The notes under the pieces were generated by a model, which saw nothing but the letters and a program-made list of their open reading frames with translations, had not been told where the DNA came from and made no database searches. From NCBI GenBank assembly GCA_963759805.1, contig CAVXAT010000001.1:96001-160000 (forward strand): 64,000 nt of DNA. The letters are read 5' to 3'. Below, piece by piece: positions 36,356-64,000 of the stretch. Numbering within the stretch: position 1 is the first letter of the stretch; the number at the start of each line of letters is the position of its first letter. A program made the translations under genes and the position numbers. Source of the DNA: an uncultured bacterium (GTDB lineage Bacteria; Babelota; Babeliae; Babelales; RVW-14).

Positions 36356-36826
36356 GGCCTTTCTAGCCGCAAAATCCTGCTGTTAAACGCAAAATGACGC
36401 CGTTACCGTCATAATGAGACTCAAAATGGAATTAGCGATGCCACTTTGCAATATTTAATCAAAAATAACGATGTATTGTGGTCTTTTGTTCAAGCAAATT
36501 TTCAACATGGACGATATTAATCTTCTTATTAAGGTTTTCAAAATTATTTGGCTGAGTCCTATTTTTAGGCTATTATGATTGAGTTGTTACAAATAGTTTG
36601 GCCTTAAATAAAATTTAGCGGGGCCGTTATGAAAGTTTTCGCAGTTATCATATAAGTTTCTAAGCATCAGTGGCTGCTGGCTGCTGTGCTAGAATACTTT
36701 CCCTTAATTTAGCCGGTGTCGTGAATATTTCACGAATACCTTTTTGTCATCCTGAATTTATTTTATAACTGTCCGAAGTGTTTTGTTATGCAGTTTTATA
36801 CCACAAAGTTAGCTTGCTTTGATCGA

Positions 36827-36863
36827 AGCCCTGTGTCATCCTGAACTCGTTTCAGGATCCATA
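36827..36863 (+). repeat. REP-like hairpin, left arm of perfect 37-bp inverted repeat
   Basis: AGCCCTGTGTCATCCTGAACTCGTTTCAGGATCCATA. Confidence 0.9.
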
Positions 36864-36933
36864 GATTAATAAGATTCCATCAGGGGTTTTTATACTATCA
36901 TTCAAAAAAAATAGCGCTAAAAAACATTATACC

Positions 36934-37233
36934 ATGAAAACATACGTTGTTTATATTCTTGCCAACAATCCACTAGGAACTTTGTACATTGGCGTTACCA
37001 ATGACTTAAAACGACGTATGAATGAACATAAACTTGGACTTGTTGATGGATTTACTAAAAAATACGGCTTAAAAAAATTGGTCTATGTGGAACAATTCAG
37101 ATACATTAATGATGCACTTACCAGAGAAAAGCAATTTAAGCGTTGGCATCGAGAGTGGAAAATTAATCTCATTTCAGAGCATAATCCGCAATGGGCCGAC
37201 TTGTATGAAATAATTTTTGGATCTGAAATATAA
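36934..37233 (+). CDS. Stand-alone GIY-YIG nuclease
   Basis: YVVYILAN...TLYIGVTNDLKRRMNEH...ALTREKQFKRW...NPQWADL. Confidence 0.93.
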   Translation: MKTYVVYILANNPLGTLYIGVTNDLKRRMNEHKLGLVDGFTKKYGLKKLVYVEQFRYINDALTREKQFKRWHREWKINLISEHNPQWADLYEIIFGSEI

Positions 37234-37248
37234 GGATTACATACAAAT

Positions 37249-37285
37249 TATGGATCCTGAAACGAGTTCAGGATGACACAGGGCT
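37249..37285 (-). repeat. REP-like hairpin, right arm of perfect 37-bp inverted repeat
   Basis: TATGGATCCTGAAACGAGTTCAGGATGACACAGGGCT, exact reverse complement of 36827-36863. Confidence 0.9.
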
Positions 37286-37461
37286 CTGGTGAAAGCAATC
37301 AGACACTTCGGACAGGTATGAACTTGATTCAGGATCTAATTCATATAATTTTATAGGAACAGTACAATGTTTTATGCTAATCGCATAGCATATTATTTTT
37401 ATGCATTTGTGTATGTATAACGTTAAACAGTTGTAAAACAAAGATTGAAAGAAAAAAAGAA

Positions 37462-49425: not shown

Positions 49426-49451
49426 AGATCCTGAATCGAGTTCAGGATGAC
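49426..49451 (-). repeat. Uninterrupted (empty-site) REP-like hairpin
   Basis: AGATCCTGAATCGAGTTCAGGATGAC, same family as 36746/36835/37249/63349 copies. Confidence 0.85.
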
Positions 49452-61879: not shown

Positions 61880-63370
61880 ATGTTGCAAATTTTTCTTATT
61901 TTTGCTCTATTACTTCCAATAATAGTTGGGGCGCAGCAGGAAGCACCCAAGCAATTGACCACAGAAAAATTAACTCCAGAAAATTTTACCCCAAAACAAG
62001 TAACCCCCAAAAAATTAACTTCCCAGAAACTAACTATGGACGATGCCGTGCAGCGTGCCCTTACGCACAGGCCGGATCTTGAGGCCTTGCGTTATGCCAC
62101 ACAGGCCTTTGAATCTGCGGCTAAATCCGAAAGAGCCTTTTACTTCCCAACCATTGGGTTGAGAAGCGATATCTATCAGCATAATGGCGAAAAAGAACCG
62201 GACAGCTACACCGAAATAACTGTGAATCAGCAAATATACTCATTTGCAGGCCCACTCCAAAAATATCAGCGAGCAAAAAATATTGCGCAGGTTTCTGAGC
62301 TTGACAGAATCATAGAGACGAACAAAACACGGCAGGCAACGGAAAAAACATTTTTGAGTGCATGGCTAGCGCAGGAAAAAGAGAAGAGCATTGCAGTGCT
62401 GAATAAATCTGCCCAAACAACATTTCAGAGGGAGAAGCAGAAAAATAAACTAGAAAAATTGGATAAAGATGTGTGGCTTAAAAATGTTTCTGATTACGCC
62501 ACATCCATGGCAAAAGTTGATCAGTATGAAGAAGAAGTGATTATTGTTTACAAAAAACTGGAATTTCTCATGGGGGAATCACTTGCTTTACTCTCCACAT
62601 GCAGCAGCGATGGTAAACAATTATGCGATGGTAGCAAACTATGTCCACCTAAAGCCAAGCTTGTATGGCATTACAAAAAGAATTACGAGCCTGAGCCGCT
62701 TGATACATACTTTCATTATGCGCTTATTTCTAGGCCAGAGGTGCCTAAGGGATTAAAAAAGATGGCTATTGAAAAATGGAATATCAGGCTTGCGCAAGGA
62801 ACACGACTTCCAGAGATAAGCGCAAGCGCTCAAGCCGGTTGTGAAACAAATCCCAATGATAAAGAAAATACAGTTATTCCATCTACCGATCTGGTAATAG
62901 CACCTCCGTCCGCATCGGCAATTAGGCCATTTTGGGAGCTACGCGTGTCGCTGGAGTGGTCGATCTTTGATGGTCTTGTAACCCAATACAGGGAGCAACA
63001 GGCAGAGGCCGATAAAGTCAAAGAGATGCTCCAGCATGAGCAAGATATTTTGAACATCAAAGACGAGGTTCATGAAAAGTACCATACACTAGTAAAAATT
63101 CTTAAAAAGTCTCGCGAACAAAAGTTAAAATATATTCATGGCCGCAACCACTACAACCTCAAAAAACAGGAGCTTGAGCTTGGCAGAATTTCGCAGGTTG
63201 ATTTTGATGCAGAGAAAACTGCCTGGCAAGATGTTCAATTTGATTGGATCTCGTACAATGTTGAAATAGCCTCGGCCGAATGCGATCTTATGTATGCATG
63301 TGGGTATCCGGAACTTTCTCAAACCAGGTCTCCAGGGCCCAAGAAGAGAGATCCTGAATCAAGTTCATAA
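61880..63370 (+). CDS. TolC family outer membrane protein; last codons run through a REP and stop in a MITE end
   Basis: Signal peptide, LTMDDAVQRAL, RPEV, LEWSIFDG; C-terminus RDPESSS encoded by REP half. Confidence 0.85.
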   Translation: MLQIFLIFALLLPIIVGAQQEAPKQLTTEKLTPENFTPKQVTPKKLTSQKLTMDDAVQRALTHRPDLEALRYATQAFESAAKSERAFYFPTIGLRSDIYQHNGEKEPDSYTEITVNQQIYSFAGPLQKYQRAKNIAQVSELDRIIETNKTRQATEKTFLSAWLAQEKEKSIAVLNKSAQTTFQREKQKNKLEKLDKDVWLKNVSDYATSMAKVDQYEEEVIIVYKKLEFLMGESLALLSTCSSDGKQLCDGSKLCPPKAKLVWHYKKNYEPEPLDTYFHYALISRPEVPKGLKKMAIEKWNIRLAQGTRLPEISASAQAGCETNPNDKENTVIPSTDLVIAPPSASAIRPFWELRVSLEWSIFDGLVTQYREQQAEADKVKEMLQHEQDILNIKDEVHEKYHTLVKILKKSREQKLKYIHGRNHYNLKKQELELGRISQVDFDAEKTAWQDVQFDWISYNVEIASAECDLMYACGYPELSQTRSPGPKKRDPESSS

Positions 63371-63638
63371 CTGTCCGAAGTGTTAAACGTAGCTTTGAAT
63401 CGTCGGATGCGTATGGTTTTCATCGCGCTCGTCCTGAGTGATTTGCAAGCAACTTGTTGCTTAGCAAATCGTATCGAAGGATAGAGCGCAACGGCGGATA
63501 GAATAAGTTTTTAGGGCGCACCCTTCGATACGCCTCGCAAGGCTCGGCACTCAGGGCGAGCGCCCTTGAGTGAGCGCAACAAGCGTTCAGATGGCTTTTA
63601 AAACACTTCGGACAGTTATGAATCAAGTTCAGGATGAC
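63349..63638. mobile_element. REP palindrome split by about 255-bp MITE (perfect TIRs, exact target duplication)
   Basis: AGATCCT GAATCAAGTTC ATAACTGTCCGAAGTGTT...AACACTTCGGACAGTTAT GAATCAAGTTC AGGATGAC. Confidence 0.88.
63425..63566. repeat. Inverted pair of a different REP-like family inside the MITE
   Basis: GCGCTCGTCCTGAGTG..CGTATCGAAGG (63425-63489) versus CCCTTCGATACG..CACTCAGGGCGAGCGC (63513-63566). Confidence 0.8.
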
Positions 63639-63691
63639 AAAAACAGCGATACCAAAACAATACCAAATTAAAATGATAAGTTTATTTCTGC

Positions 63692-64000
63692 TCAGATGCT
63701 AATCATGCGCAGGTAATCTTTCTGACTTTCATAAACCATTGTAGAAATAAAATTAATAAACGGCTTATCATCTTTGGGTTCAACTTGAGTATGCTTGAGT
63801 AAATTAATATAATCAGCTCTTAATATTGGCGGAATTATTGTTACAACGTAGCCATGCTGCAACAAAGCCAAATTCATAACAAGTCTGGCTGTTCTTCCAT
63901 TGCCATCTACAAATGGATGAATGGTAACCAACTCTTTGTGTAAAAGTGCGGCAAATTCAACAGGATGTAGCTCCTGTCGTATTGTGGTCATGCTATCAAC
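63692..64000 (-). CDS. Fic domain protein, 5' end outside window
   Basis: Canonical HPFVDGNGRTAR motif. Confidence 0.9.
   Translation of the reverse strand, partial: VDSMTTIRQELHPVEFAALLHKELVTIHPFVDGNGRTARLVMNLALLQHGYVVTIIPPILRADYINLLKHTQVEPKDDKPFINFISTMVYESQKDYLRMISI

Follow-up and report, generated by a model that had tools for sequence, protein, structure and literature searches.

What placed a 253-bp segment inside a hairpin repeat at the end of an efflux-protein gene, and why do its relatives occupy the same position of the same kind of repeat? The segment lies at 63367-63619 of the window analyzed here, a 64,000-nucleotide stretch (contig C1, positions 96001-160000) of a Babeliales genome (Dependentiae/TM6) that we label G000, with G, C and L numbers denoting genomes, contigs and loci; its assembly comprises 1.497 Mb in 21 contigs at about 37% G+C and is 89% complete. 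We compared it with 261 genomes of the order, including the three other genomes of the genus (G001-G003), of which G002 is a sister species. Judged from sequence, the segment is very probably a transposase-less derivative of an IS4-family insertion sequence (IS), inserted into the hairpin loop by cut-and-paste DDE transposition in trans. As the original prediction had claimed, perfect terminal inverted repeats (TIRs) split a palindrome: read directly, the 18-bp left TIR ATAACTGTCCGAAGTGTT (63367-63384, plus strand) has its exact reverse complement at the right end (63602-63619, minus strand). Immediately outside them stand two copies of GAATCAAGTTC (63356-63366 and 63620-63630), a target duplication of 11 bp, or of 9 bp (AATCAAGTT) if the element ends in CA/TG, and this ambiguity, already raised by the prediction, is real since the flanking C and G may be part of the element. 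Beyond the duplication, the hairpin stem continues in its two separated halves, GATCCT at 63350-63355 and AGGATGAC at 63631-63638. In-silico excision of the element and one repeat copy restores the palindrome GATCCTGAATCAAGTTCAGGATGAC, which, again as anticipated, is one loop base apart (TCGAG versus TCAAG) from the intact hairpin AGATCCTGAATCGAGTTCAGGATGAC at 49426-49451. The latter had been taken for the empty target of the same insertion; it is instead a paralogous hairpin, another member of the repeat family and not an unoccupied allele. The TIR word matches the window four times at up to three mismatches (36765 and 63367 on the plus strand, 37302 and 63602 on the minus strand), compared with 0.06 matches expected from shuffles, and four matches were reached in none of 100 shuffles.

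The segment can be described as a MITE (a miniature transposable element with inverted repeats): it is short, its sole open frame spans 68 amino acids and it encodes no transposase, its TIRs are shared with an autonomous IS (see below), it is flanked by a target duplication, and it is present in four copies. The insertion lies at the end of a plus-strand gene for a TolC-like outer-membrane efflux protein (Pfam OEP, 61880-63370), whose final codons are encoded by the half-hairpin and whose stop codon, a TAA inside the TIR, is supplied by the transposon end. If the MITE were absent, translation would end one codon later, at the TGA in GGATGAC; the insertion, which shortens the protein by one codon, would be nearly cost-free. 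When the region is folded as a single strand (minimum free energy -75.5 kcal/mol, z = -10.45), the split stem still pairs, and the TIR stem lengthens it. Both the relocated stop codon and the preserved pairing of the stem in single-stranded DNA (ssDNA) fit a loop that serves as a low-cost insertion site. A structured-RNA reading of 63300-63700 was dropped, and an Rfam scan of this segment at E values up to 1 gave no family.

BLAST of the 253-bp element against the genome returns four copies at 98.4-100% identity. They share a recent common origin, their flanking genes are mutually unrelated, and all of them split the hairpin GTCATCCTGAA-N5-TTCAGGATCC at an identical position, each with its own 11-bp duplication: GAATCAAGTTC for the copy in the window (C1:159367-159619), GAACTTGATTC at C1:41146-41398 (flanks GTCATCCTGAACTTGATTC and GAACTTGATTCAGGATCC), GAATTTATTTC at C4:96480-96732 and GAAATAAATTC at C8:91585-91837. 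The last of these matches only when the outer right end at 91907 is used. C8:91585-91907 is a 323-bp composite, consisting of an extra end, an arm and a half-hairpin and then the 253-bp MITE, and because the perfect GAAATAAATTC duplication requires the outer end, it suggests that the composite moved as a unit, with the two outermost of its three ends used in one transposition.

These copies also bear on whether any insertion took place. If the half-hairpins were part of a longer element with extended inverted repeats, the copies could have spread by duplication or recombination alone, and the complementarity of the stem halves, the folding of the whole region as one long ssDNA hairpin, and the inverted flanks found in some relatives (L164 and L305) would all be expected. 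However, in all four copies the duplicated loops are direct and copy-specific (CTTGA, TCAAG, TTTAT and ATAAA), which largely refutes this account: because the duplicated loop differs between copies, what flanks each copy is target DNA that was duplicated, and the element itself does not include it. With 56 intact hairpins of the target family that carry no element (at up to three mismatches) and unrelated genes around each copy also against it, we consider spread without insertion highly improbable. Among the 56 hairpins is a variant, GTCATGCTGAA...TTCAGCATC, with a compensated stem change.

The preference for the hairpin extends to the remaining ends in the genome. At up to two mismatches, G000 contains 14 TIR ends, of which 13 adjoin CCTGAA-N5-TTC (at most one mismatch), a motif with a background frequency of 2.1e-4 of positions, and the fourteenth (C1:16419) adjoins a decayed half-hairpin. 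The predicted site specificity for the hairpin loop is thus borne out, here and likewise in relatives; TIR copies lying mostly outside the repeats, or mostly without duplicated flanks, are not what the genome contains, since 13 of 14 ends are at hairpins and all four copies have duplicated flanks. About ten ends occur in what we termed B-type arms, i.e., a half-hairpin followed by a TIR, an arm of about 25-50 nt and a full hairpin. The idea that such an arm is a one-ended mini-element bearing a duplication of its own was rejected because only two of ten carry identical loops on both sides, as expected by chance (about 0.27); the arms are read as left ends of longer units. As a separate observation, five hairpins (C1:22808, C8:3665, C8:58542, C8:143324 and C14:19556) hold a GC-rich palindrome of about 30 bp, CCTGCCCGCCATAGC...GCGACGGCTGG, whose insertion site, again fixed and distinct from that of the MITE, lies between TTCAGG and ATCC; this indicates that more than one kind of small element lands in this hairpin.

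The identity of the mover is indicated by a full-length relative. A pattern search for end pairs across the genomes of the order recovered a 1256-bp element in G147 (C130:3720-4975) with ends ACAACTGTCCGAAGTT, which agree with the MITE TIRs in 14 of 16 bases; its left flank GGATCCTGAAACAAGTTC places it likewise in a hairpin loop, and the contig stops three bases past its right end. Between these ends (positions 1021-2276 of locus L156) lies one open reading frame (ORF) of 388-404 amino acids, P0001. In this protein, Pfam detects DDE_Tnp_1 (PF01609, 59.6 bits) together with DUF4372 (PF14294), and the NCBIfam model for IS4 family transposases (NF033592) scores 168.5 bits at a cut-off of 115, while all remaining transposase models (other IS4, IS701 and IS1634) stay below their cut-offs. 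Across 16 aligned homologues (37-100% identity), Asp137, Asp208 and Glu319, spaced by 70 and 110 residues, never vary, and neither do Tyr312, Arg315, Glu319 and Lys326, which make up Y(2)R(3)E(6)K. The portions of De Palmenaer et al. 2008 (PMC2266710) available to us name, as defining traits of the IS4 family, a D(60-110)D(100-150)E triad, the YREK signature, one ORF only and a target duplication close to 10 bp. The G147 element agrees with them in triad spacing, signature and single ORF, in addition to its family model score, and the copies in G000 agree in duplication length. The proposal of an IS4-like DDE element has therefore held, and the full-length transposase-encoding copy that it called for exists in G147 and not in G000.

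Within the family, the IS4Sa subgroup is listed in Table 1 of the same source with lengths of 1150-1750 bp, ends of the form CA------T and duplications of 8-10 bp (PMC2266710). The 1256 bp of the G147 element fall within this range, and C-ATAACTGT matches the terminal pattern only if the flanking C is counted as element. Going by ends and size alone, IS4Sa would be the best-fitting subgroup, provided that the flanking C and G belong to the element and the duplication is 9 bp long. The CA ends are likely. The 11-bp duplication (9 bp with CA ends) is present in all four copies here and at L025 of G002, and in 10 of 11 bases at L292, L293, L302 and L174.

G000 is rich in transposases of its own: four of its IS types account for no fewer than 14 DDE_Tnp_1 matches, and IS200-like (Y1) transposases are present as well, any of which might be thought to cross-mobilize the MITE. 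None of these resident types, however, carries ends like ATAACTGTCCGAAG or resembles the G147 transposase, and the flanking duplications of comparable copies look short (about 5 bp or less), so that we give mobilization by a resident IS next to no weight. The likely mover is instead a transposase that is now seen only in a related bacterium. One resident type deserves separate mention: a DDE_Tnp_1 IS of about 1.0 kb with ends TAACGCCAGTTCGATAA is present in three copies (C1:52932-53948, C1:85708-86724 and C2:123177-124195), and many hairpin-doublet repeats (e.g., C1:174281-174387, C11:60006 and C21:33247) have TAACGCCAGTTCGATAA as their outer termini too. Because the termini are shared, these doublets look like MITEs of the TAACGCCAGTTCGATAA-ended IS that carry two hairpins of the Ssn type discussed below.

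How the IS4-family transposase selects its target can be examined across the order. The TIR copies were searched for in the assembly and in its relatives and their flanks tabulated, which gave 59 ends in 10 genomes. Perfectly symmetric flanks, defined as the last three bases being reverse-complementary to three bases 5 or 6 positions upstream (3+5/6+3), are found at 36 of the 59 ends, compared with about 4% of random positions. The end keeps its place, three bases into the descending arm, in genera whose hairpin stems differ, e.g., GGC-CACCGA-GCC| and GGA-CTCCGA-TCC|. Among the more distant copies, a 627-bp element of G002 (L025) lies in a hairpin with the perfect duplication GAAACGAGTTC; the metagenomic L172, 79% identical, has the same ends and flanks from two different hairpins; and the metagenomic L174, 42% identical, has ends ATTACTGTCCGAAACC and an 11-bp duplication, GGTTA[A/C]AAACC, inside another palindrome. 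A 3+5+3 layout is shared by GAA-N5-TTC in our genome and GGG-N5-CCC, the target consensus of IS231A. From these patterns, we infer that symmetry and not sequence is recognized in the target.

As a plausible mechanism, the transposase, acting in trans, would bind the 18-bp ends and excise the element; the target would be captured by its two-fold symmetry (G-N-N, a loop of 5 or 6 bases, and N-N-C, with the hairpin stem outside); and the strands would be attacked 9 or 11 bp apart, centered on the loop, with gap repair producing the duplication. The transposase source would then be missing from the 89%-complete assembly, having been either left unassembled or lost. Since members of the IS4 family that move by cut and paste are treated in the portions of PMC2266710 available to us, we infer, by analogy, the same chemistry here.

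Several observations weigh against transposition by this route. P0001 has no homologue in G000 (best tblastn E value 0.5; blastn with the IS empty), no close homologue in the three other genomes of the genus, and one in only 1 of the 261 genomes of the order. The nearest named ISs, which are on plasmids (ISAbe18, ISRel1, ISRm16 and ISH5), are just 22-33% identical to it. Of the 59 bases that directly precede a TIR, 46 are C, 11 are T and 2 are A, so that the duplication may be either 9 or 11 bp long. The orthologous empty hairpin was sought in G001-G003 for all four MITE loci and found at none of them; the flanks are there, and the hairpin is absent or other genes are in place. At L164, a 241-bp copy (G148:C50:25432-25672), the loops are inverted (CTTGA and TCAAG) and both flanks are of the GATCC type, which suggests an inversion or an exchange between two copies and not a simple insertion. 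Duplications are lacking at L304, at L305 and at the second pair of L293, as well as at the metagenomic full-length elements L172 and L177, whose flanks are possibly chimeric assemblies. For L164 and for the end pairs of L304, L305 and L293 that lack duplications, the best reading is either rearrangement between copies or a more distant type of element.

In metagenomes, homologues of P0001 are frequent and lie for the most part on contigs 1.25-1.3 kb long, which have the look of a collapsed multi-copy IS. Some candidates for further copies did not hold. Two ends 3.7 kb apart in G007 were considered as a transposon and rejected, since housekeeping genes lie between them, leaving two solo ends; four contigs of G148 that end 141-143 bp past the TIR were considered as collapsed IS copies, and blastn with the G147 IS matched just 46 bp; and in G072 the motif ATAACTGTCCGGAGTA lies within the end of a different IS. 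An exact-pattern scan of genome contigs gave, among the matches listed, mostly chance 16-mers in unrelated phyla, and none of the public sequencing runs compared by sampled words contained more than 0.13 of the words.

What kind of repeat, then, is the target? It had been called a repetitive extragenic palindromic (REP) sequence, which is right insofar as it is a dispersed hairpin repeat; its associations are of another kind. At 36835-37277 of the window (C1:132835-133277), a single-copy gene for a 99-residue, single-domain GIY-YIG nuclease (SsnA-like; 36934-37233, plus strand) lies between two inverted hairpins of the GTCATCCTGAA-N5-TTCAGGATCC type, the upstream one at 36835-36859 on the plus strand and the downstream one at 37253-37277 on the minus strand. 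The best homologues of this gene are flanked by inverted hairpins at 18 of 19 relative loci (L253-L271; one further locus, L269, was dropped as only partly matching), the nineteenth being cut by a contig end. The stems change between genomes and yet remain complementary, while GTCAT... and ...ATCC are constant. In Pfam, the protein matches GIY-YIG and, overlapping it, T5orf172 just below threshold (19.6 bits, cut-off 20); in the PDB, it gives only weak matches, to UPF0213 proteins (E value 0.003). In the accessible portions of Chenal et al. 2025 (PMC11893778), Ssn nucleases are described as cutting ssDNA near NTS/SRM hairpins, with NTS being CGTCATTCCCGCGMAVGCGGGAATCYRG, and the system has the same layout, i.e., a small GIY-YIG gene between inverted, dispersed hairpins with GTCAT at the start and ATCC at the close. 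By architecture and dispersal, the target hairpin and the GIY-YIG gene together form what we classify as a putative Ssn/SRM-like system.

A link to REP-associated tyrosine transposases (RAYTs) finds no support in G000, because its Y1 genes are not bracketed by the hairpin: by eye they look like IS200-type TnpA, and the nearest hairpins are 0.4-1.1 kb off and on one side only. One further Y1 trace is present in the window, a weak partial match to PF01797 (58902-59123, i.e., C1:154902-155123, minus strand; 25.9 bits, profile positions 2-75) within a 138-residue open frame, possibly a decayed IS200-like gene.

The nuclease gene returns in the cargo of the TIR-bounded units. Two GC-rich hairpin modules fill the MITE, at 63426-63482 (element positions about 60-116) and 63508-63565 (about 142-199), both of which are also dispersed in the genome, where such modules are found alone, independent of TIRs, at many loci. 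At C1:266177-266644 and C9:54244-54850 of G000, a small GIY-YIG gene of a second type, sharing about 30% identity with the gene in the window, lies between modules of this kind (GCTCGTCCTGAGTG...CGTATCGAAGGATGCG). The modules may represent a second Ssn-like hairpin type that rides in the MITE as a passenger. The alignment of the 627-bp element of G002 with the MITE spans the two ends and the two modules, between which the G002 element has an intact 97-residue GIY-YIG gene; this makes the MITE a gene-less counterpart of this cargo cassette. As read from its perfect duplication, a GIY-YIG-carrying cassette appears to have transposed at least once, in G002.

The second TIR-bounded unit of the window, 555 bp long (36765-37319), encloses the two inner hairpins and the GIY-YIG gene described above. 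It had been paired with the MITE as a copy with the same TIRs at the same repeat position and with different cargo. Ends, hairpin position and cargo agree with that description, both ends adjoining half-hairpins at the canonical position and in the correct orientation. One of its TIRs, however, has two mismatches (16/18 bases, compared with 18/18 for the other), and its flanks GAATTTATTTT and GAACTTGATTC are different hairpin subtypes (loops TTTAT and CTTGA) without a target duplication. Because the two half-hairpins carry different loops, movement of this unit as one piece is not shown, and recombination between copies and two separate events are equally possible origins. At the other 18 GIY-YIG loci, no such ends lie within 260 bp, save a decayed trace in L254. 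The idea of interchangeable cargo is thus borne out only in part: the 627-bp element of G002 and the 323-bp composite, each with its duplication, support it, and the 555-bp unit does not.

Given these associations, the nuclease itself might be suspected of moving the element, with a hairpin-specific, SsnA-like GIY-YIG enzyme cutting ssDNA at the hairpin and the element entering by repair or template switching. The target is the very hairpin that brackets a GIY-YIG gene, the MITE interior is made of modules that bracket a second GIY-YIG type, TIR-bounded units with GIY-YIG genes occur both in the window and in G002, and Ssn nucleases are reported to cut ssDNA close to such hairpins in the available portions of PMC11893778. 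Yet the IS bounded by the same ends codes for an IS4 transposase and lacks a GIY-YIG gene, a 9/11-bp duplication centered on the dyad is the mark that staggered strand transfer by DDE enzymes leaves, the GC-rich modules occur at many loci without TIRs, and SsnA is described in the same portions as cutting a few nucleotides upstream of the hairpin and not in its loop. Entry through the nuclease is therefore very unlikely, and insertion by an IS4-family transposase is preferred here as well.

The accessible text of PMC11893778 also reports that SsnA tolerates extensions placed in the loop, in keeping with a low-cost insertion site. A more far-reaching proposal, which we offer tentatively and regard as a possibility with the odds against it, is that the transposase reads the shape of the Ssn hairpin instead of a set sequence and, whichever stem a genus has (GAA/TTC, GGC/GCC, GGA/TCC or GGG/CCC), always lands three bases outside the loop on either side, where an insertion is neutral for hairpin function, and that TIR pairs thereby ferry Ssn nuclease and hairpin modules. 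If such a shape-reading transposase exists, this intracellular bacterium would host a three-layer nested ecology of selfish elements, in which IS4 ends act as vehicles for GIY-YIG cassettes.

Insertion into palindromic repeats has precedents. REP-targeting ISs are known from five families, and the portions of PMC1525189 available to us list ten of ten copies of ISRm22 (Sinorhizobium meliloti, IS4 family, IS4Sa) in REPs. Like the element described here, ISRm22 belongs to the IS4 family, has all copies in palindromic intergenic repeats and has conserved target arms (PMC2266710, in part). In contrast, its host phylum and its repeat differ from the Dependentiae and the Ssn-type hairpin, and our data concern mainly MITEs, with the autonomous copy in another genome, so that the two are likened by behavior and not by transposase sequence. 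IS231 and its derivative MIC231, IS4-family elements of the Bacillus cereus group, resemble our units in having IS ends around non-transposase cargo that is mobilized in trans, and the IS231 duplication of 10-12 bp is comparable with the 9/11 bp here (PMC2266710, in part, including Table 1). They differ in the IS231 consensus ends CAT-------AA--TAA, which are unmatched here, in the size of IS231 (at least 1450 bp, compared with 1256 bp) and in cargo, which here consists of GIY-YIG/hairpin modules. REP-specific insertion is also described, in the accessible portions of PMC1525189, for IS1397 and ISKpn1 (IS3 family) and for IS621, ISPpu9, ISPpu10 and ISPa11 (IS110 family, whose members mostly lack inverted repeats); unlike the present case, these elements use other transposase families and chemistry, and none has a 9/11-bp duplication. 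As for the Ssn hairpin as a target, the available portions of PMC11893778 mention a phage recombinase that targets dRS3, and no IS4-type element in a hairpin loop is described in them.

IS4-family targeting of REPs (ISRm22) and IS4 ends around cargo (MIC231) are thus already known, whereas the host phylum, the Ssn-type hairpin as a target and the recurrent linkage of the ends with GIY-YIG/hairpin modules are new here. With its fixed insertion position, variable loops and stems that co-vary across genera, the system provides a natural data set on IS4-family target choice, and it could guide experiments on how DDE transposases recognize symmetric or hairpin-forming DNA. It also implies that Ssn hairpin repeats double as landing pads for other mobile elements, and it accounts for part of the dense repeat mosaics encountered when annotating Dependentiae genomes.

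Finally, on the other side of the insertion, a 99-residue ORF on the minus strand (63692-63991) converges on the MITE-bearing hairpin. Its similarity to the Fic/DOC profile is confined to the profile's C-terminal part (positions 56-93 of 93), and the ORF may be a truncated Fic gene.

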